A stretch of DNA of 62,328 nucleotides, counting the filler. It is 11 parts of 11 records of this genome, joined end to end, with 100 filler letters (N's around TTAATTAATTAA, not from the genome) between each part and the next. Parts side by side here need not be neighbours in the genome. Positions count along the whole stretch, not along the records: positions 43,637 to 48,564 come from SRR15195285_498; 10 more parts are not named here. One strand, written 5' to 3'. Each line of letters begins with the position of its first letter. Positions within the stretch are counted from its first letter, which is position 1. The notes below the pieces were generated by a model. That model worked only from the letters and a program-made list of their open reading frames with translations. It was not told where the DNA came from and ran no database searches. The position numbers and the translations under genes were made by a program. Below are positions 3,028-57,545 of the stretch, one piece after another.

Positions 3028-3127
3028 NNNNNNNNNNNNNNNNNNNNNNNNNNNNNNNNNNNNNNNNNNNNTTAATTAATTAANNNNNNNNNNNNNNNNN
3101 NNNNNNNNNNNNNNNNNNNNNNNNNNN
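3028..3127. other. Artificial contig spacer N-TTAATTAATTAA-N (also 8777-8876, 19539-19638, 24282-24381, 28559-28658, 39073-39172, 43537-43636, 48565-48664, 52131-52230, 57244-57343)
   Basis: Ten identical 100-nt spacers with a 12-mer that gives stops in all six frames. Confidence 0.98.
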
Positions 3128-8617: not shown

Positions 8618-8990
8618 ACAACGCCCTCTGCCGGCCTTGTCTCCCCGGGGGGAGCGGGTCAGCTGCGGCTGGCGGCCACCGTCAGGATCCCCGACCCCAT
8701 CGACCGTCCATGGCTGCCCCACCGGTCTAGTCGACTCAGTCAGTGGGTCAGGATTCAATGCACAGGGGGGGGGGGGNNNNNNNNNNNNNNNNNNNNNNNN
8801 NNNNNNNNNNNNNNNNNNNNTTAATTAATTAANNNNNNNNNNNNNNNNNNNNNNNNNNNNNNNNNNNNNNNNNNNNATTGACTGGGGCGAAAAAGCGGAC
8901 TTTTCAAGCATACAGTTGACTGAGATGTGTCCCACCTCATAGAGCTGACTGCGGAGGTTCGACGACGGTACGGTACAGCGATCTGCCGCC

Positions 8991-16700: not shown

Positions 16701-19128
16701 GCTTCATAACCTAAAACTTCAGCATGGTGTGCTGCACCTTCGGGGAGTGCAGTAGTGTCGACTGAGACATTGAAACCTGCAATAAGAGACACCGCCCGTG
16801 TTCACAAAAGCATTACGCAATTGCATATATACTCGATGCTGATGTGTACATGCAATTCGTATGCGCAGCTCTGTGACCGCAAGTACAGCAAGTGCTACTG
16901 GAGAGGGAGAAAGGAGGTGGGTGCAGAAACATTCGTCTCAGTGTGACGTACCACGACCTGTGGCCATCAGCACCAAAGCTGATGGTACTTTGATCCAGTC
17001 CACGGTCGGCACAAGAAGTACATGAGACTCGAAATCAATCCGCAATTGGTTGTCGGATTTCATCACACGCGATCCTGTAGGCGCCGAGGTCTGGTCTTGC
17101 ATCCGCGGTGTAACGGAAACCATCACCTGCTGCGTCCCCATCTCGCATGGCTCTCGTAGGTAAATTCCTTTCTTAGGAGCGCCAGAGCCTGCGAACACAA
17201 CACCAGGTAGCAGAATTCATATAATCGATTATTGATTCTGCTCGCTGATCTATACTCGCTGCCCTTGTGAAGATGTCTCTGCTAGTTTCGTTTCGTCTAT
17301 TGGCTGCTTCGTTATTCTGCTCACCATGACCTGGCATGCTGACGCTGACGTCGTAGCTGATATCATCTGTCCACTTATCCGCACGCGACTTGAGGTATTC
17401 GAAGCACGCATCGACCTACTCCAGCGTAATCCAGCGCACAGCGCAGCAGTTCAGCAGTTCGGTCGTGTATGACTTTTCGCGAAGAATCCAGCAACGGGGA
17501 TCAAGTACCTGGACGATGCCGTGGCCCACCTCCGAGCGGTCGGCGCCCGGCAGCGGCTTTGCGGTGCTGATCAACGCGTGCCGCACGCGCGCTGGTGTTG
17601 CGGGGATTGAATGAGCCTTGCACGCAGAAAGAACCAGAGCGACACAGCCTGTGAGGTTCGGAGATGACATCGAGGTACCTGAGGTTCGACACAGCCCGTG
17701 AGGTTAGAAAATGACACCCAGGTACCTGAGGTTAGGAGATGACTCGATACCGTTCATCAGCTGGCCGCGTTGTAGAGTCCAGGTTGGGACTGATGTGATA
17801 GCTGCCCCAGGCGCAGTAAGCTGTACGCCTTGAGAGCCGTCCTGAGCAGGCCCACGGCTGGACCATGTCGTCATGGTACTCGGCACCTTCTCAAGCATCG
17901 AGTACTCAGCCTCCATCATTGCTGGTGTCACGTACGCTCCACAAGAGATAATCTCTTCACAAGTCCCACCCGGTGCCCCGACAGTCGTGTATGCGGGCCC
18001 GTTGTTCCCCGCAGAGGATATAAAGATGATGCCGTGCTTGTTGACCACCTCGGCGGCCTTCTCAAGGAAGCGCCCGGCATTTGGTGGCGATGCGGCCTCA
18101 CCGAAGGAAAGATTGATGAGGTCACAGCCATTGTCCAGCACAGTGCGCAGCCCGCGGACAAGCGCCGAAGCAGTCTCCATACCGTCCAGCCGCGAGTCAC
18201 CGATCTTCACAGCGACAATCTGCGCACCGGGCGCCACCCCGTTGAACTCGGGGGCATCTTCGTGGCATGCGCCCACGATGCCGGCGACATGCGTGCCATG
18301 AGCCCCACTGTCGCATACGACGCTGAGCACGCTGCCTTCGTCAAAGATATTGATGGCATAGTTCATCAGCGTACCTGCAGGGTCGAGATTCTCGCCCGTG
18401 AACGTCCCGTACTTGCGTTCTGCGCGGAAGTTCGTGAGTGGCTCGAGGGCCGAGACGTCACCATCATCAGTCGTGCCGACCACCGCTCGCCAGTCAGAGC
18501 CGTCGTGCCACACGACCGCATCAATCACGGGCCCCAAATCCTTCACTATCGACTCTGCACTCTCCAGCTGCTCAAGGTGCGCCTTGAGCTCCCGCTGTGT
18601 GGCCTTGTCCTCCTCGCTGAGGGGTTTGCTGACGGGATGGGCCACCTCGAACTCGCTCAACACGGTGCGTGCCTTAGTGGTGGCGGCCCGCTGCGCCTCA
18701 TCGAAAAATTTCTTGCGCGCCTTCTTGATCCGGCTCGCTAGCCCACCAGGAATGACATCGTAGAGCGGTTTCGCCCCAACTCTGAAGTTGCCGGTCGGAT
18801 TCGACCACCCGTCGTTGAGGGTGATTGTGCGCCCTGACTTGCCCTCGATGGTGAGCTTGCCGTCCGCCACTTTCGCTTCCCGCACGGTGCTCGTGTCGAT
18901 GTCGCCCGAGCCAGTGGCGTCCACAACGTCGATGACCTTCGGCCTGCCGTCTGGGCACGTCGCGTTCAGCCCAGGAGCCCCCGGGTCCGTACCCGTGTCG
19001 AGAATCGCCACCACCACATTCCGTCCGTCGCACTCCGGATACTTCGACAGGAACATCTCCGCCTGCGTGCTGGCCGTCGGCACCCGCACCGAGTCCGCAG
19101 GGAACGTCGCCGTCGGCTGCTCCGCCAT
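13763..19128 (-). CDS. TPP2: Tripeptidyl-peptidase II (subtilisin S8 family); multi-intron
   Basis: Catalytic motifs VAILDTG, HGTHVAGI, SAGNNGP and MNG|TSMSSPN (restored by splicing 17750-17679); C-terminus LMKELGWEHL..RFPEDRQLF-stop typical of TPPII. Confidence 0.95.
17679..17750 (-). other. 72-nt intron made of degenerate tandem copies of the downstream exon
   Basis: Intron gtatcgagtcatctcctaacctcag|gtacctgggtgtcattttctaacctcacgggctgtgtcgaacctcag vs exon gtacctcgatgtcatctccgaacctcacaggctgtgtc; contains an in-frame TAA. Confidence 0.9.
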
Positions 19129-19638
19129 CCTCCCACCTGAATACGTCTGTACGCGAATTCCGCTGCTGCGACGCCTCCAGCACGGCGCACGGGCGCTGCT
19201 CTGCAACACGAGGTGGCTGCGCCCGGATCCAGTAGAGCGCCTCGCCAGCGTCGGCAGTAGCGAGCCTCGCGAGCACCGAATTGTGAACCAAAACTGTTGC
19301 ACACGATGGCCAACAGGCACTCTACACGTACCCAGTATATATAGATAGTAGGCAGAGACTGCGCACGGACAGCCGTGTACACCTGAGGACGACTATCACT
19401 GCTCCTGGCGGTCCCTCGCGCTCGCGATCAGCCAATCGCGCCGCGCGCCGCGCCCCCGCGCGCGGCGCGGGCGCGGGGGCACGCGTGCTGACTCGGGCCG
19501 GGGACATTGGCCATGACAATGTGATTTAGCGGTCGGGGNNNNNNNNNNNNNNNNNNNNNNNNNNNNNNNNNNNNNNNNNNNNTTAATTAATTAANNNNNN
19601 NNNNNNNNNNNNNNNNNNNNNNNNNNNNNNNNNNNNNN

Positions 19639-24281: not shown

Positions 24282-24834
24282 NNNNNNNNNNNNNNNNNNN
24301 NNNNNNNNNNNNNNNNNNNNNNNNNTTAATTAATTAANNNNNNNNNNNNNNNNNNNNNNNNNNNNNNNNNNNNNNNNNNNNACTCGTAATTAAGCGCTTA
24401 GAACGATAGTAATTACTCTTATATTAATCGTGTAATGAGGAAGTGTGGGCGGCAGACGCAGTGGAATTTTCGGCGACGTTCGCTCTGATGGGTGGACGGT
24501 TGGTGGGCTGACCATGTCTATGCTCTGATTCATGAAGTACATGAAGTACATGAAGTTTTGGTTTGTTTTGACCATATTCGTTTTTGGTTTTGATAGATTT
24601 CTGCCACAAATTCGACCAAAGTGTATATCGCCCGATCGCGCATCGCTGTACTATTGTGCGCAGTGGTGGCGGAGGCCGTATGGTTCATGGTTGCTCGACG
24701 CCGAGGCCTTTGTGCTTGGGTGTACCGACGCCACTCCCAGTCGACCGCGACTGTGAAGTTGCAGTGTGGTTGTCGTTGGACGAACAGATTGTGATTACTT
24801 CATGATTTCATGAACGATTACAAGAGCTGCCTTA

Positions 24835-27800
24835 CTATGCGCAACCGCAACTTGTTGACACGTTCAAAGTACGGCCACTCTCGCCCGCATCCTGTGTAGC
24901 GTGCCCCACCGAAACCAGCGTTGCGATGATCGACGTTGCTCCACCTCCGACCATGGTCGAGAACTTCGTCAAAGTACGCTTATCGACAACAAGCCCAAAG
25001 ATCTTGACTGTAGCAAGATAGTCGTCGCGTCAAAAGCAACCCATTCATCAGTCAAATGTGTAGTATCAAGAGCGTGGCGGTACTGACATACTATGAACTG
25101 AAAGGTGTTGGGCGAAGTGACCTACAGCCAAGTCCTTGTCCTGAGTTCAGATTCATCAGCGACTCACGCAGCGCTGCACAACGATTCTTGTGTGGCATAC
25201 CACCCAAAAAGCTCACGTCATTTAGTTGATCGAGAAGTTCGTCACAAGAGGACGAAACCTGGGCCGGGGCAGCCAAAATCATCAGAGGCAGCACTGCTGT
25301 CCCAGCCAGTCCTATTTTTATCGCTAGAGTATCAGTTGCGACCGCATATGGCACCGCGCAGAGCGTAAATGCCCAGAACCCCAGCATCGTCGCACCCATC
25401 GCTGTGCCCTACCACGCCACAATGCAATTCAGCTATTCCACAGAACGCTTGCAGGCAATCGAACAGGTTCAGACTCACCCAGGCCGACAGCACCTTGAGC
25501 GTCGAGACAATCATCGTGCATGGCTGCTGGACGCGTGTTATCCAAGTCGCGCGCCCGGTGTCTTCCCCGAGGTATTGTTGCGCGGCAAGTGGGCCAAGAT
25601 CCTTCATCAGATCATCCACCGCATCTTGCGCCAGCGTCACGGCAAGGCACAGAGACAATTGCCAGGCCGGGTAGACTACTGAAAAGAGCATAGCAGCTGG
25701 CACCCAACATATCACCAGCAAGACTGCGTAGACGGTCTGCATCGTGTTCGAAATACAGCCCACGGGTGGAAAGAAAAACTGCGCAATACCACCGTCCAGT
25801 TTTTCGCTGAGTATGTCATCGTCTGAAGACCACAAATGATCGGCTATAATTGAAACGAAAGCGACCAATGTGAAAACCACCAAAACGAGCAATGTTGCGG
25901 CAAGCAAAATCGTAATGTAGAAGCAGATGTGCAGCCAAGCAATCGCATTGGCGTCGAGTTCCACGCGCTCGACACCAATTCCATCCGCCCTCAGCCTCGA
26001 AGTCGACGTATGCGAAAGCAACGCAATCCCACCGAGCGACACAACCGGGAAACTACCTGTCTTTGTACCCTCTTGAACAGAGGGATCAGTGACAAAAGCA
26101 ATCGCCCCAGCTTCGTTCTTGGATTTCATCCTCAGCTCTTTTTCGTACTGCTGCTGCGCAACGTCATGTAGGTGGTGTACAGAGAATTTCGCCATGTTCG
26201 GCACCATCAGGTGATGCAAAGAAACATTCTTGGTGGCCGGTATCATTTCGTAGGTGAGCAGTTGCCACTTGAGACCAAAAAGCGACCTATCGTACCAGAA
26301 CCGAGAGGAATATTCTGTGATGAATGCGTCTAGAGCCTGGGAGGCCTTGTCTAGTTCGGCTTGGAGTTGCTTCTTACTCTGGGAACGAAACAACCGGAAC
26401 CCCGTGTCATCCTGCGCCAGCTCCTGTTCTTGCACCAGCTCCACCAAGCGGACTTTTTCGGCGCTGAGCATTTCATACTTACGCAATTTTTCGAGTGCCT
26501 TGGCTATACACTCAGGAGTCTCCATGGTTACAATGCCGTAATGTGCAATCGGTGCTGACTGAGAATCGCCTGCTTGCGTAATTCTCTCATCTAGCGTGCC
26601 GTCATCGTCGTCACTGCGTTGCAGCACGTAGACTCGAGCGCTGGCCACTGTTCCAACTTTAGAAAACATGTCCCGCAGCTCTTCGTCATTCATACTTTCC
26701 AGAACGTTAGTCACGTACAGCGTTCTCCCCTCGTAGCTCATGGTGCCGAAGGCCTTGTCAATCAACTCGATACTTGTATTCGAGAATCGCGGACGTCGGG
26801 CGCGCATAGGCATGCGGCGAACAGATTCAGAATGAGTAGGGGATAAATGAGGCAGCTCCCCGTGAGATTCCTTGGAAGCGGTTGATGGTATCGTTTCGGT
26901 CAGGGTCATCGTTGTAGTGTCGCTGAGATCAGCGTCGAACTTCTCACCTGCAACTGTAACCTGCGCGCTCTGCATACCATCGACAGCTGACTTCGACAGC
27001 TGACTTTGCGCTGCTTCATCAAAATCTTTCCAGCCACTTTCATCGTCAGGTTTGAACTGCCAGTGTAATCCTGGGACGGTTGCAGGCAGTCCACTGACCA
27101 AGTTGTCTGTGCTGTTTTCGCTTTGTTCGTTCGCAGTCGAACGCTCGGGCGGTTTGTCCGAGGCAGCGTCACTTTGATCTCCCGCAAGTGATGTTGGCGC
27201 CAGGGCCCATTTCCTGAGCTGATCAAGAGTCACCTTTGATTTATCGCAATCTTGGAAGCTTGGATGGGTGCGGATGAAGCCAGTTTCTTGCTCTGAAAAT
27301 GTCCGCCGCTTCAGGCCCAAGAGTTCCGTGCTGCCTGGTATATAGTCACTTGTGCGCATCCAGCTGAGCTCATCTAGTCCCTGTCGCTCGGTGTACAGAA
27401 CCCCGAGCTCACGGATCAGCAGCTCGTCCCGAAGAGTCTCGCGTGTGGCTTCCTTTTGAAGATCGATGTCAGCCCATTCCAGCTGAATATTTTCTACCGG
27501 TGGTGGTGACGGCGGTGGCGGCGGCGATCGTGGTGACAACGTCCCCGGCCGACTCGATGTTCTCACACTGCGGTTGCTCGGAGAGGTGGCACGCAGGTCA
27601 TTCCTGGCCTTCCTGGCCTTCCTCTTTTTGCGTTGGGTCTTCATCTCCACCAAATATTGTTGCTCGTGCTCTACAAGTTCCGTTCCACGGTGGGCGCCAC
27701 GAACTGCCTCTACAAGCCCCCTGAACTGGAAGAACCACGCACATGTGAAGACAAAGATACCGACCCCGAGCATTGCATCGACAGGTGCACTCACGGTGGC

Positions 27801-28256
27801 ACAGCCGTATGCGAATTCTAAGACGTAGCCAACTGAAGCCACGAATGGCGCGGCAACCATTAAGGCGCGGACTACCATGTTCAGCGATTTTTTCTGCAAG
27901 ACGACAGAGATCCATCCGTCAAACCACTCCGGCGCCAGTTCGACTTTTGAGCGTGTGCCGTGGTGAGTCTGCTCTCCCGCAGCATTGTCCCACCCTTCAG
28001 TCACCAGCCCTGCGTGTACGCTCTCCTCAACGCCACAGGACAGCTCGCTGTACCCCGTTGATCCGTCCCGTAGTCTCTGCGATGTCAAAATCACAGTGCA
28101 TGAGACAGTATGGGCGATAGGCAGGAAAACCTCCCTTCAAAGTTGGAGTGACGGAGAATTTAGATGGACTGCTGCGATGAGACGCTATAGTGTAGACACA
28201 GAGAGCTGACAGGTCATTCCACTCACGGATCGACTGGCTGAGTCCACACTGCGCAT
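24835..28256 (-). CDS. Gustatory-receptor-like 7TM (7TMIC/DUF3537-like) protein with inserted WWE and RRM domains
   Basis: gccATG 28256; introns 28226-28077, 25478-25409, 25125-25008. Two N-terminal TMs, WWE-like WQFKPDDESGWKDFD..VTVAGEKFDADL, RRM RTLYVTNV..LRDMFSKVGTV..YGIVTM, further TMs, and PAQVSSSCDELLDQLN..GQGLGFKIFGLVVDKRTL. Confidence 0.75.
28057..28234 (-). mobile_element. Spliced MITE-like element, copy A (178 bp)
   Basis: 10-bp TIR GTCGATCCGT/ACGGATCAAC (9/10); donor GTGAGT at 28226, acceptor CGCAG at 28077; homologous to 43756-43924. Confidence 0.85.
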
Positions 28257-28806
28257 GGCCCTGCTGCTCGTCCGCGTGTGTTCTCGCACCACCCCACCGC
28301 TTGCAGCCCTGCAGGCCGTCGGGCGGCTTTCCACACTGCGTACTCCCCGAATTACACGTCACGTGTATGTACGCCGGTAGTATCCCGGCCAGAGAGCTCC
28401 CTGCACCCCCCTGCTCCGTCGGTCTTACGTACGCACGCGTCGTGAGGGATCCGGATAGCCTCACTAGCTAGGGATAGCAGCATACGTAGCACGAGACGAT
28501 AGCTGTGTCCACAGCGATGAAGTACAAGGTGATATAGCGGTATTTTGCCTCATTTGGGNNNNNNNNNNNNNNNNNNNNNNNNNNNNNNNNNNNNNNNNNN
28601 NNTTAATTAATTAANNNNNNNNNNNNNNNNNNNNNNNNNNNNNNNNNNNNNNNNNNNNTCCTCGCGCGCGCGCTCGCGTTGCGCGTCGCGCGCGGCGGTG
28701 GGCGTCGCGATACAATTCATCGATGTGGCATATTCCTGTATGTACGGCTTGAGGACCTCGATGCAGTGGAGATAGCAGGTCCTGCAGCCGGCTCAGCTGC
28801 CATCAC

Positions 28807-39072: not shown

Positions 39073-39179
39073 NNNNNNNNNNNNNNNNNNNNNNNNNNNN
39101 NNNNNNNNNNNNNNNNTTAATTAATTAANNNNNNNNNNNNNNNNNNNNNNNNNNNNNNNNNNNNNNNNNNNNGGGGGGG

Positions 39180-43536: not shown

Positions 43537-43755
43537 NNNNNNNNNNNNNNNNNNNNNNNNNNNNNNNNNNNNNNNNNNNNTTAATTAATTAANNNNNNNN
43601 NNNNNNNNNNNNNNNNNNNNNNNNNNNNNNNNNNNNTTTATCAGTGAGTTCTATGTACTCCACAAGCCTCCAACCCAGCCCGTGAGGAATTCCTACCGTT
43701 GGCTCGTCCGGTGGGGCGCGGTGCTGCGTGGGCCTCGCTGGTACATGTAGCAGTC

Positions 43756-43924
43756 GTTGATCCGTAAGTGGACCGTGCTGCTCAGCTCTCTCTATGTATA
43801 GCGTCTCGTCGCGGCCGTCAGCAGTCGAATCCCTTCGGCACTCTACAGTGACAGTTGTGGTTTTACGCCCGTACTGTCTCATACGCTGTGATTTGGCGCC
43901 GCAGAGACTACGGGACGGATCAAC
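43756..43924 (+). mobile_element. Spliced MITE-like element, copy B (169 bp), upstream of the 44092 ATG
   Basis: Perfect 10-bp TIR GTTGATCCGT/ACGGATCAAC; donor GTAAGT 43764; acceptor CGCAG 43904; last 25 nt identical to copy A. Confidence 0.85.
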
Positions 43925-44091
43925 TGTCTGTACCACAGCCTGCCCTCGGCTTGCCCGCTGCAGCACCACACGATGCGGTGACTGACCAGTGGCAGTGAGT
44001 GATCTCGTCGGTCAACACCGCGAGGACCTCGTGGGCAGCACCGTAGGGACAGTGTGGAGCGGTGTCGCAGCTGTCTAGAGGACGCGACGAG

Positions 44092-47000
44092 ATGCCGAGG
44101 CATGGGCGCACGACCGTGGGTGTGGCGGGGCGCGGGGCTGGGCGTGGGCGGGAGCTGGAAGAGGCGTGGCGCTGCCTGCGCACAACCAAGGTCCGGGCGG
44201 CATACTCGCGAGATAGTCAGCGGATTGGGGTGATCGAGCGTGGCGAGCTGGTCAAGTCCATCGAAGAGCGCACAGACGAGCTCGGCAGGCCGCAGCATCG
44301 TCTCAGCTGGCCCCTGAAGGGATGGGTGAGTGAGACTACCAGCAACGGTGACGTGGTGTTCTGTTCAGCTGAGACGGACGACCTTTCATCTAGCAATGAC
44401 GATATGATTGAGACACGCCCCGATAGCCGTCGACGATCTCAGAGCACTGCGGTGACCCGCGGCCGCCGGCAGCCCTCGCCGCAATCGAGAACGAATCGGC
44501 ACGAGGCTGAGCAGTTCGTCTGCCTGAACCGCGCGCCGCTACGCGTTGGATTGGACATGCTGTCGGAGCGAGCTGGGTTCGTCGAGCCAGGCGATATTAT
44601 TAGAGTGCTAGATGTCCGATTCAACGATAAGGGGCAGCGACAGCTACGCTGCGAAGCTGGATGGGTGATGGAATACGGCTGGACAGGAACGCAAATGTTC
44701 CAGCCGCTCGACCCAACCGCGGCGATGGGCGATTCCTCATCTTCGTCCGAGGGCGTGCAAATAGCAATGGTTGTAGAACGGGAGCTTTCTCGTCGTCAGT
44801 CACGCTCGCCGAGTCCCGTGCGTCACCGGCGTCGTTCGAGTTCGCGCTCACCGTCGTCACCGGCACGCCGCGGCTCGTTGAGCGCACGCAGACGACGTGC
44901 TGAGCAACGCAGCCCTGGGGGGCGCAGCATGTCTGCAGGACGGGCACGAAGGCGTACGCGGCGCCTCTCTGCCGTCGGAAGCGAGCACAGCGACGTCTCT
45001 GGTGACGAAAGCTTGGTGGATGGCAGTCACACAGAGGCACAAGCACGTGAGTATTTTGCAACAATGCTAGGGCTGGCGGGAGCAATCACAGACAGTCATA
45101 TCGACAAAGCGATGGGCATGGCAGCGGAGCGCGGGCTAGTTAACGCCGCGCAGTGCTCGCGGATAAAGAGGCAGGCAGGACGTGCGAAGATCGTGACTGC
45201 ATTCAACATCATGAATGCGGCAGGGTCAGTGCAGCACCGCCGCTCTCGCACCGCGGCCGTGGCAGAAGCGCAGCCTGTTCGGCGCACGTTGAGCCCGAGG
45301 TCACAGCAACGTTTTGTTTCACGGATGCAGCAGGACGCTCAGCAGCGCGAGGAGTATCTTGATCAGTTGCGGGACCTGCACTCTGAGCAGCACTCGCGAC
45401 GAGCGAAATACATCGACCGGCGCGCGCACGAGGACTTGCTGGCACGCATGGAAGCGCACACACACCAACGCGAAGAGGAGTTGGAGCTATATCGAAGTAG
45501 ACCTGACCTAGTGGACCCGCACCTTGTATTTCAGCCAACTATCAACAGACGGGTGCCCAGCACTCGAAGGAGATCTTCTCCGGCACGCTCTCCAATGCGG
45601 CGTGCGGAAAGTCGCCACCTGGACCAAATGAACGCAGCCAGAGCCAGGGCTGCTTCCATAAATCGGAACACGCACTTGCGCCGCCCAAAATCACCACGCC
45701 GGACTAATTCGCCTGAGTTGGTTCCAATTTCAGACAAAAGCGTTCTGCGGGAACAAATTATCGAGATTTTTGAGCTGCACAATCCAGCTAAGCTGGACAG
45801 CGTGGATACTTTAATCGAGAAGTATGGCGCGGAGCCATTGCTGCGTCGGATGGAAGATAAGTACTCACGCACGCTGGAACCAATTGAGAGATCGCTGCGG
45901 GTGCGATCGCCAAAGCAGTTGCAGAGCCCTCGTGGCGGAGCGACGTTGAGTCCAAAGAATCGGCGTGTTACCTCGGCTCGGCGGCGGCAGCCTGTCAACA
46001 AGGGCACGCTGAAAACAGCCTCGGTCTCGCGCAATCTACCTACGCATGCAAGCCCAGGTCGCACCCGAGGTGATTCGCCAGGGCGGCAGCAAGGCGATAG
46101 CGTCTCGACGCGCGCAGAGGTATCGCACGACGACTACTCGGATGAATCAGCTGAAAGGATCGCGCTGAGCCGAAGCCGTAGACGGTTGCGCCCAGATTCA
46201 GCGGCTCGTGCAACTTCAGCGAGCAAGTCTCGTGCAACTTCAGCGAGCAAGTCGTCGAGCCGTCGTCGTTCTCCGTCACCGAAGGCGAGGGGGAAACTGC
46301 GGGCGAAGGATAGAGACCGGAGGCCTGCACGCAACGCGCCACCAGCAAGAAGCAAGGAAAGTGGCTTTCGCGCAATGCCAAGGCTCACACAGGATCAGAA
46401 ACAGGTCATAAATCTCTGTGTGAGTATGGTGGACCGCCACGGCACAGGCTTTGAGGCCAAGCTTCGGAATCATGCATCCGAGGATCCTCTGCTCGAGTTT
46501 TTCCTCGACAAAACCTCAGATGCGTGGAAACACTACCATCAGATTTTGAACGACATAGACCGTCGCAAACCATCCAACTTCAAGCAATACCTGGAGAGCA
46601 TGGTGCTGACTGATGTGAGCGCGGTCAGGCGCGCCCTCGAATGTGAACGTATCGAATCTATGGATGACTGGGATGCCTTGGATGAAGCTGAAATAGATGA
46701 CCTCCTGCGATTCTTATCGTCGGCATCGAACATCAAGGATCGAGACCTTGGAATCATCGAGGGCCACTTGCGTGGAGATTTGCATGCGTTCGACAATTTT
46801 GCACGCCGCCAATCAACCTCTCCATCCAGAAACCGTCGCAAGGACGTAAGAGGATCGTATCCAGAACCAGAGCCTGAACCTGAACCGGAGTACAGGAGCC
46901 CTGTGCACGAAGACGGTCGATCTGCTGGAACACTAGGTACAAGATCTAGTGCCAGTGGCGGCAGCAGGCACATACCTGCTCGCACTGGCTCATCTAAGTC

Positions 47001-48564
47001 CGTGATACCTCCGTGTGACGGTAAGCTTTACGTAAAAATCGTGGGTGGGCACGAGCTATTACTGCCTCGACAAGAGATGATAGCGATCGAGTTCAAACTC
47101 GGTACCAAAGGTGGCAAGCAGACGACTGTTCCCGTACTGTCAAATGGCGGAAAGCCCGAATGGAATCAGACGCTGGAATTTCCTGTAACGCACACGGAAA
47201 AAATTAAGGAGTATGAGCTCAAGGTGAACGTTTCTGGGTACAAATCCATTCTCGGCACGGGAGATTTTGTCGGCGAAACTACGATAAAGCTCGACGAAGA
47301 GTTTGCGACAAAGGATTGGAATGCCGAACTCACTCGCGAATTTTCATTGTGGGATCCGAAGAAGAAAGTGAAAGCAAACAAGCCAGCTCGTGAAGTCGCC
47401 TGGCGACGTCAAAATGGCCCCACCTGGGGTGAAAATTGCTTTCATGGCAAGTTGGCAGTTCAGCTGTGGTTCGTTGGCTTTGAGAAAGCAGAGGAGGCAT
47501 TCGCAATGGGCAAAGACGTAAGCGGCTGCTGGGAGGCTGTTGGTACAGACAACGGCACAGCAGTCCCGTTGCAACGATTTCATTTGCAGCAGCACGCGGA
47601 CTCTTCAGTGACTGGCCACCAGCACGAAAGCCCGAGGGCGCGTGTCGATTTTGCAATCGAGAATGCCACGCTTGACGGGCAGCAACTGAAGTTCGATCAA
47701 GTACTCAGCCAAGATAGACATGGGAGATCCGGACGTTACAGCACCGTGTACTGGTCTGGTACACTGACTAAGAAAACCGGTGTTTTGCACTTCGAAGGGA
47801 CATGGGCTGGTGCCAAGAATGGGAGATTTCACGCGACTCTGACACGTCCGAGTGTTGACGATCCTAGGGTTGGAAGTCAGCAGCTTCGGGAACATATGGA
47901 TGCGGTTGGTGTCCGAGATCTGGACCTTGTCATGGACTTCCTGGAACGGTCTAACGTTGCTAACCTCGATAAATGGGTTGACCTAGGGACTGAAGACAGG
48001 GAAGACATTTTGGCAGCGCTGGGCAGGGAGCGACGTGTAAGACGTGATGATATCATAGTACTGAAGTCGGCAAAAGCATGGCACAGACAAACCTCATCGG
48101 GCAAAGTACCGACAGCGATTCCCCGAATCTTCGAATGCATTAATGGCGACGGGGACGCCAGACGCTTATTTCAACGATACGACAGGGATGGCAATGGCTA
48201 TCTGAGCCCCTCTGAGCTGGCAGCGGCGCTGCGTGGCATGCAGCTAGACCTAAGTGATGACGATGTCGATGAGATAGTGGCGTTCATGGATACAGACGAC
48301 GACGGTTACGTCTCGCTTATTGAGTTTATGGATAGGTCTTACATAGGCAATCTTGCGTACGTGCGCGAAAAGCTCATCGATCGGGCTCCAGACGCACATG
48401 GTGCACCCAGCTTTAGGGGGCTATTCAACAGGCTTGACAGGAATGGTGATGGCGAGCTCAACTTCGACGAGTTCATGAAAGCAGTGCGGAGTCGCAGTGG
48501 GTGCGACATACAGGAAAGTGAGCTCTCGAGAAACCAGCTGCAGCAGCTATTTGATCATATCGAC
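44092..48564 (+). CDS. Large mosaic protein: 2 SH3b-like, RS-rich, SURP, 2 SAM-like, C2, EF-hands (3'-truncated)
   Basis: ~1490-aa open frame; SURP-like VINLCVSMVDRHGTGFEAKLR..LEFFLDKTSDAWKHY; C2 GKLYVKIVGGHEL..PEWNQTLEF..DFVGETTIKL; EF DRDGNGYLSPSEL, DTDDDGYVSLIEF, DRNGDGELNFDEF. Confidence 0.85.
46205..46252 (+). repeat. Perfect 24-bp in-frame tandem duplication (RATSASKS x2)
   Basis: ctcgtgcaacttcagcgagcaagt twice. Confidence 0.95.
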
Positions 48565-48664
48565 NNNNNNNNNNNNNNNNNNNNNNNNNNNNNNNNNNNN
48601 NNNNNNNNTTAATTAATTAANNNNNNNNNNNNNNNNNNNNNNNNNNNNNNNNNNNNNNNNNNNN

Positions 48665-51618: not shown

Positions 51619-52381
51619 CGCCCCCGCGCGCGCTCAAACCCCAGCAGCAGCGCCTCTAGTTTCACAGCTACACGGTGTGTGTGTACAGGAGACTGCCAAC
51701 TCAAAGCTGTAGATACCGTGCGCAAGCTTTCGGATCTACATTCACTGCGTGCGTCGACGGCGCCGCGTATACAAATACATCGCGTCCCATGTGCAATCTC
51801 GGATTAAAGTGTGTTCAAAGTAGCAATTAGACGCATATTATTTGAATTTAAATCACAACGAAGATATTCTCCAAGGACTACGAGACTATAGACACCAGCT
51901 CTGCAATCTGGGCACTGTCTCACGACGCATCATCTACCCTCTAATGTCTATGCCGGTGAACAGCTTGCTTGTGTACACTCAACACTGTATGCGATAAACT
52001 CATTCTCTATCTCCCCCCCGCCCCGCGCCAGCGGCAGAGGTCGCGCGGTGGGTGTGTACTGTCAGTCCAGGTGGTCACGCAGAAGTTCCTCGGAACGCCG
52101 AACATTCGGAGGTCAGGATGACAGCGGCACNNNNNNNNNNNNNNNNNNNNNNNNNNNNNNNNNNNNNNNNNNNNTTAATTAATTAANNNNNNNNNNNNNN
52201 NNNNNNNNNNNNNNNNNNNNNNNNNNNNNNAAGGAGAGGAGAATTAGATTCAGATTATACATCTTCTCTCTGCGTCGACCGTTGACCGTTGGCGCGTTGG
52301 GCGTTGGGCTCATTCATTTGCATTCGTGGCGGAGCGGCGCGCTGCGTGGCGGCGGATAGGATGGGCGGGCTGTGCTAGTCG

Positions 52382-57243: not shown

Positions 57244-57545
57244 NNNNNNNNNNNNNNNNNNNNNNNNNNNNNNNNNNNNNNNNNNNNTTAATTAATTAAN
57301 NNNNNNNNNNNNNNNNNNNNNNNNNNNNNNNNNNNNNNNNNNNCGCTTGATTTTGCAGAAATGAGAATCGACCATGGCTACAGCTGTACCTTGTAAGAAC
57401 CTTCAGGTACCGAGTACAGTACTGAGGTGAAAACGGCTACTAGTAGTCCAAGGACGGACCGAATGGCGCTCGCCCTCCGTGGTGGTGCTGCCTGTGCCTC
57501 GCGCTGAGAGGACGGCGGCAGCAAGTGCCGAGCGAGCGTGGTAGC

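Follow-up and report, generated by a model that had tools for sequence, protein, structure and literature searches.

The DNA analysed here, hereafter the window, has a length of 62,328 bases and consists of 11 contigs of 3–10 kb that are chained by ten identical linkers of 100 nt, each formed by a run of N, the sequence TTAATTAATTAA and a second run of N. The linkers are located at positions 3028-3127, 8777-8876, 19539-19638, 24282-24381, 28559-28658, 39073-39172, 43537-43636, 48565-48664, 52131-52230 and 57244-57343, and the genuine sequence, linkers apart, amounts to 61 kb. The ten identical linkers show the contigs to be unrelated, and distances and neighbourhoods across a linker are meaningless. 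The DNA is eukaryotic, with a G+C content of about 51–62%, and its open reading frames (ORFs) are long and mostly unbroken. Proteins with EF-hands are numerous, and Rab7, a TPPII-type subtilase, a mitochondrial carrier, a BT1 transporter and a PhyH dioxygenase are also encoded. Rab7 is too conserved to be used as a taxonomic marker, and its closest matches are environmental proteins. A dinoflagellate host was considered and is unsupported, as a 15-nt piece of the dinoflagellate spliced leader was not enriched in the window (2 matches at 3 mismatches vs 1.55 expected by chance).

Contig 8 (43637-48564) holds a short element, copy B (43756..43924, plus strand, 169 nt), and the coding sequence of a C2/EF-hand protein, gene B (44092..48564, plus strand, 1491 codons), which runs off the contig. 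The left edge of the contig lies 119 nt from copy B. Copy B is in sense with gene B, and its end lies 168 nt before the ATG at 44092-44094, which is the likely start of gene B as judged from its homologues: protein P0122 (3166 aa) begins at this methionine and is 100% identical over 303 residues, and P0125 (86% identity) begins there as well. In P0123 (62%) the matching methionine, within an MPR motif, is residue 27, the called ORF starting 26 residues further upstream. An in-frame stop is located at 44044-44046, upstream of the ATG. The matches of gene B to P0122-P0125 come from the full protein scan; with the word-indexed collection, nothing was found among the 820–2610 aa proteins searched. 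P0122 extends 1675 residues past the end of contig 8, and that portion is absent from the window. A second consensus donor, GTGAGT at 43996, is present in the leader of gene B, and its sole in-frame acceptor, TCTAG (to 44078), is weak; the stretch 43996-44078 may represent a short intron of the leader or have no significance.

Copy B is bounded by terminal inverted repeats of 10 bp. The left repeat, GTTGATCCGT (43756-43765, plus strand), has the GT of the predicted donor as its last two bases, and the right repeat, ACGGATCAAC (43915-43924, plus strand), is its exact reverse complement, so that 10 of 10 bases are complementary and the perfect repeat claimed in the earlier note stands. Between them lies a predicted intron of 141 nt (43764..43904, plus strand), with the predicted donor GTAAGT at 43764-43769, the predicted acceptor CGCAG at 43900-43904 and a candidate branch sequence, CTCAT, at 43878-43882, the A of which (43881) is 23 nt from the 3' end. 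The positions that the note had given for the repeats, the donor, the acceptor, the 141-nt predicted intron and the ATG at 44092 were all correct. A subterminal inverted repeat of 12 nt, CCCGTACTGTCT / AGAGACTACGGG (43868..43914, plus strand, 83% complementary), brackets the branch region and the acceptor; it is also found in the second copy of the element, copy A (28067-28113), with one additional mismatch. Each of the two copies contains the motif GTCTC[A/G]T two times as a direct repeat, which suggests an internal duplication inside the element.

A perfect 10-nt inverted repeat is not in itself remarkable in this DNA. The window contains 19 such repeats with loops of 100–300 nt, 20 shuffles gave 14.45 on average, and the repeat of copy B taken alone is not more than chance. 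Its coincidence with both limits of the homology between the two copies is the improbable part, with 10/10 bases complementary in B and 9/10 in A. No match at the gathering score was obtained with Rfam in the whole window, and the predicted RNA folds of the two copies were unremarkable (z-scores of -1.76 and -0.83).

Copy A (28057..28234, minus strand, 178 nt) is located on contig 5 (24382-28558), so that the two copies, on different contigs and in unrelated genes, lie on opposite strands, A on the minus and B on the plus. They share 71.7% identity over 184 columns by blastn (E 5e-18) and 69% over 182 columns in a global alignment; copy B also matched the element profile with E 1e-52. When 50-nt flanks were added to each copy, the similarity extended exactly from the first base of the left repeat to the last base of the right repeat, and the flanks were unrelated. 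The reading of 43756..43924 as a second, diverged copy is supported. The host genes are unrelated too, as had been noted: one codes for a WWE/RRM membrane protein and the other for a giant C2/EF-hand protein. No further copies beyond these two were detected in the window, either by blastn with a word size of 7 or with an nhmmer profile built from the two copies, which gives 2 copies in 61 kb. A two-anchor pattern scan of a bacterial and archaeal genome collection returned 6 loci, all of them attributable to chance and none homologous by nhmmer at E <= 10.

Divergence between the copies is concentrated in the interior. The outer columns of the alignment (1-40 and 121-182) are identical at 84 of 102 positions vs 41 of 80 in columns 41-120 (Fisher p 1e-5), which bears out the earlier description of conserved termini and a variable interior. 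The last 25 nt are identical at all 25 positions and the first 17 at 15. Conserved ends are a feature of any MITE family, and the GT and AG would both be expected to be shared by just two copies with a probability of about 0.69^4 = 0.23 at the background identity. The selection on both mobility and spliceability that the note had proposed is not supported by this comparison of two copies. The identical 3' end takes in the silent positions of seven codons of copy A, which suggests either that the nucleotide sequence itself is constrained or that copies with different interiors stem from a recent common source. The left repeat of copy A, GTCGATCCGT (minus strand, 9/10 match), has a single mismatch, a C where copy B has T (28230-28232 on the minus strand vs 43758-43760). 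This base gives the codon CGA (Arg) in the frame of the host gene, where the sequence of copy B would read TGA.

Copy A, rather than copy B, offers the best evidence that the family behaves as an introner. Its host, gene A, has an open frame of 934 codons on the minus strand (25335-28136), which extends into the last 20 nt of copy A and contains no methionine across its first 85 codons. Protein P0121 (412 aa) aligns from residue 42 of this frame with 48% identity (E 6e-66), and thus the coding sequence of gene A must reach upstream of the first methionine of the ORF. A single ATG is found upstream of copy A, at 28256-28254, and it opens ten codons that end at 28227, exactly where a GTGAGT starts. 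In-silico removal of the 150 nt from 28226 to 28077 joins these ten codons in frame to the long ORF. The predicted gene would comprise an exon 1 of ATG plus 9 codons (28227..28256, minus strand; MRSVDSASRS), a phase-0 intron of 150 nt (28077..28226, minus strand; GTGAGT...CGCAG) and an exon 2 of 914 codons plus stop (25332..28076, minus strand), beginning with RLRDGST and coding for the WWE/RRM membrane protein. The final 8 nt of exon 1 are the 5' end of copy A, and the opening 20 nt of exon 2 are its 3' end.

The peptide of exon 1 resembles the N-terminus of P0121, MRPVGRSTSRS. Against the first 11 residues of P0121 it scored 21. Of all 10-mers that begin with an ATG in the six frames of the window, 1468 in number, 1 reaches this value, and it is presumably the exon-1 peptide itself. 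A GT-AG intron can rescue gene A only if its donor lies within 28249-28197 and its acceptor within 28135-28021. Within these limits there are 72 candidate pairs, 19 of them in frame, and GTGAGT/CGCAG is the only consensus combination; six of the eight candidate donors are inside copy A. Copy A is therefore best read as a probable working phase-0 intron after codon 10 of gene A. The spliceability that the note had proposed for the family is supported for copy A alone, and indirectly, by restoration of the ORF and by the N-terminus of the homologue; it is because of this indirect evidence that the family is called here a spliceable TIR (terminal inverted repeat) element.

The history of the insertion in gene A is less simple. 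P0121 has 6 of the 10 residues contributed by the element, within a low-complexity stretch rich in S and R, and these may equally reflect an old shared insertion or coincidence. The number of residues before the shared EGWD motif is nearly equal in the two proteins (37 in P0121 vs 36 in gene A), and this does not fit well with a simple, recent gain of 28 nt. Moreover, a footprint of 28 nt is not divisible by three, yet copy A is in frame, so that an unseen duplication of 2, 5 or 8 nt or later indels are needed.

Splice signals were compared with those of the Rab7 gene on contig 7 (42744-43536, minus strand), the two canonical introns of which were the only references. They were mapped with P0012, an environmental Rab7 of 205 aa whose residues 60-172 match the central exon with 100% identity. 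Intron 1 (43411->43276, minus strand, 136 nt) reads GTGCGT...CTAAC...CGCAG and intron 2 (42939->42843, minus strand, 97 nt) reads GTGCGC...CTGAC...TGCAG. The predicted introns of the element (141 and 150 nt) resemble them in size and in the GCAG-type acceptor, and the donors of the element, GTAAGT and GTGAGT, are nearer to the consensus than those of the Rab7 introns. The two strands of the window together contain GT[AG]AGT 42 times, and 2 of these sites lie within the element copies. A survey of ORF-joining introns was tried as a training set for splice sites and rejected, its 291 candidates being too noisy. On the Rab7 contig, the ORF call of the collection, P0001, begins inside intron 1 and extends into intron 2; since its start lies inside an intron, prokaryote-style gene calling has mis-modelled this contig.

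On balance, we favour the reading that copy B is a non-autonomous, MITE-type introner of about 170 bp with splice signals inside its 10-bp terminal inverted repeats, which would form an intron in the leader of gene B. According to this mechanism, the element would carry its 5' splice site 8 nt from the left end, a branch region, and its 3' splice site 20 nt from the right end. After a sense insertion in a transcribed region, the spliceosome would excise everything except a footprint of 28 nt (8 + 20 nt), and in the case of copy B the whole right terminal inverted repeat and most of the left one would remain in the mRNA. Such an insertion could persist at sites where an extra 28 nt, together with any target duplication, are harmless, as in a leader or in a loosely constrained N-terminus. 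The copies are short (169 and 178 nt) and lack an ORF of their own, and splice-like signals are placed at conserved positions in both. We infer that the family was mobile in the past. No direct repeat of 2–9 nt abuts the terminal repeats of either copy; a target-site duplication may have been lost by decay. The 42 ORFs of the window scanned against Pfam revealed neither a transposase nor an autonomous partner.

Described introners offer several points of comparison. Inverted repeats were reported in 72 of 177 introner families and duplications in 49 of 130, and in the same work splice-site arrangements vary, some families having repeats without duplication (Gozashti et al. 2022, PMC9860276). 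A later catalogue comprises 1,093 families from 201 species, about 72% of them unclassifiable (Gozashti et al. 2025, PMC12130899). The present family matches introners of the DNA-transposon (MITE) type, a kind that is already known. Like the MITE-like introners of Micromonas and Aureococcus and the catalogued families of DNA-transposon type, its copies are short, non-coding, similar to each other and placed at unrelated gene positions; they have terminal inverted repeats, an element-supplied GT...AG and branch region, and are in sense with their genes. In most described families the length of the mRNA is unchanged, whereas here both splice sites are inside the repeats and a footprint of 28 nt is predicted. 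The present case also differs from described introners in that only two copies are seen, with no visible target-site duplication.

A further parallel concerns the introners of Aureococcus that bring both splice sites, in which element-derived bases lengthen the transcript by 12 bp and add codons to the host protein (PMC9860276). There, 4 nt of element and an 8-nt target duplication add up to 12 nt, in frame, whereas here 8 + 20 nt are expected and no duplication is detectable. Introners of the Acanthoeca type likewise have terminal inverted repeats without visible target duplication (PMC9860276); the missing duplication here may be the result of decay in two old copies and not an established trait of the family. 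The termini of the element had no match in the supplementary tables of PMC9860276 and PMC12130899 (the latter taken without files 13 and 14), which apparently contain statistics rather than sequences. A full-text literature search with the 10-mer of the element gave, among the matches listed and by their titles and the opening of their abstracts, unrelated subjects.

The family also resembles ordinary MITEs (Stowaway- or Tourist-like) in its small size, inverted repeats, lack of coding capacity, conserved ends and variable interior. Ordinary MITEs are not known to have a positioned set of donor, branch and acceptor or to be removed from mRNA.

Copy B as a 5' UTR intron of gene B is a reasonable reading of its position, and the chances that it is spliced as a 141-nt leader intron, provided that transcription starts upstream of it, are judged about even. 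A possible though less favoured alternative is that the transcript of gene B does not include copy B, which would then belong to a promoter, to intergenic DNA or to the end of an upstream gene and whose splice signals would be unused. The contig offers just 119 nt upstream of the copy, with no mark of a transcription start, and within them no ATG-started ORF runs into the donor of copy B in any of the three frames. Intergenic copies of introners are tabulated for Micromonas (PMC4815162), and the sense orientation of both copies has a chance of 1 in 4. On the other hand, a distance of 168 nt to the start codon is a plausible leader length, and copy B is in sense with a donor, branch region and acceptor as intact as those of copy A.

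It appears improbable that the shared 170 nt are an immobile, conserved 5'-proximal module, consisting of a first intron with its flanking signals, be it one copied between genes through gene conversion or segmental duplication or one retained for regulation. Both copies are indeed in sense at the 5' ends of genes, neither a target-site duplication nor a transposase was found, and the 25 nt of the 3' end are identical at every position, third codon positions of copy A included. However, the homology stops exactly at the terminal inverted repeats on both sides of both copies, which an arbitrary duplication would not do; flanks and host genes are unrelated, and neither Rfam nor the fold z-scores (-1.76, -0.83) revealed anything unusual. 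More doubtful still, and hardly to be expected, is an interruption of the coding sequence of gene B by copy B, with the true start beyond the edge of the contig. Between 43648 and the donor of copy B one frame has no stop, and a chain through the second putative intron (GTGAGT 43996 -> TCTAG 44078) reaches the main ORF in frame. Against this, P0122 and P0125 begin at the methionine of 44092 and the stop at 44044-44046 is in frame; the weak TCTAG acceptor would be needed, one in-frame acceptor among five candidates being the chance expectation, and the upstream extension of P0123 is unlike the upstream frame of the window. The ATG at 44092, with copy B in sense upstream of it as the note had stated, is backed by P0122, P0125 and P0123.

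Under the favoured introner reading, a further and unlikely variant is a family whose terminal inverted repeats are meant to stay in the mRNA, each insertion adding a fixed tag of 28 nt (8 + 20 nt). The identical 25 nt at the 3' end would then point to a role at the RNA level, as an exonic signal required for splicing of the element itself or a shared leader motif. If the element also favoured sites within the first few hundred bases of transcription units, such a design could spread a common 5'-proximal intron plus tag among unrelated genes.

No mechanism other than introners is known to generate introns in bursts. With each new family, especially one from uncultured marine protists, it becomes clearer how the spliceosome is recruited by transposons. 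The present family would be a clear example of the rarer design, in which both splice sites are carried and a whole inverted repeat is left in the mRNA, and both copies are placed at the extreme 5' end of genes. If confirmed by a full genome and RNA data, the size and location of a tolerated footprint could be shown. Copy B alone is little more than a second data point for the family.

Other features were observed in the window. The N-terminus of gene B (44170-44800) contains two SH3-like modules of about 60 aa each, with 140 relatives at E <= 0.001 in a representative library and no Pfam match; the ESM Atlas gave a lead to SH3_3/SH3_16, at a score of only 0.83. At approximately 44116-44187, P0125 is without 24 residues that are found in gene B, between two near-identical direct repeats of 10 nt. 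This gap looks like an indel between the repeats rather than an intron, its boundaries not being GT-AG. On another contig, a 47-nt unit is present as a tandem duplicate with 87% identity (17640-17733), adjoining the 3' end of the open frame of the subtilase ORF, on the opposite strand.
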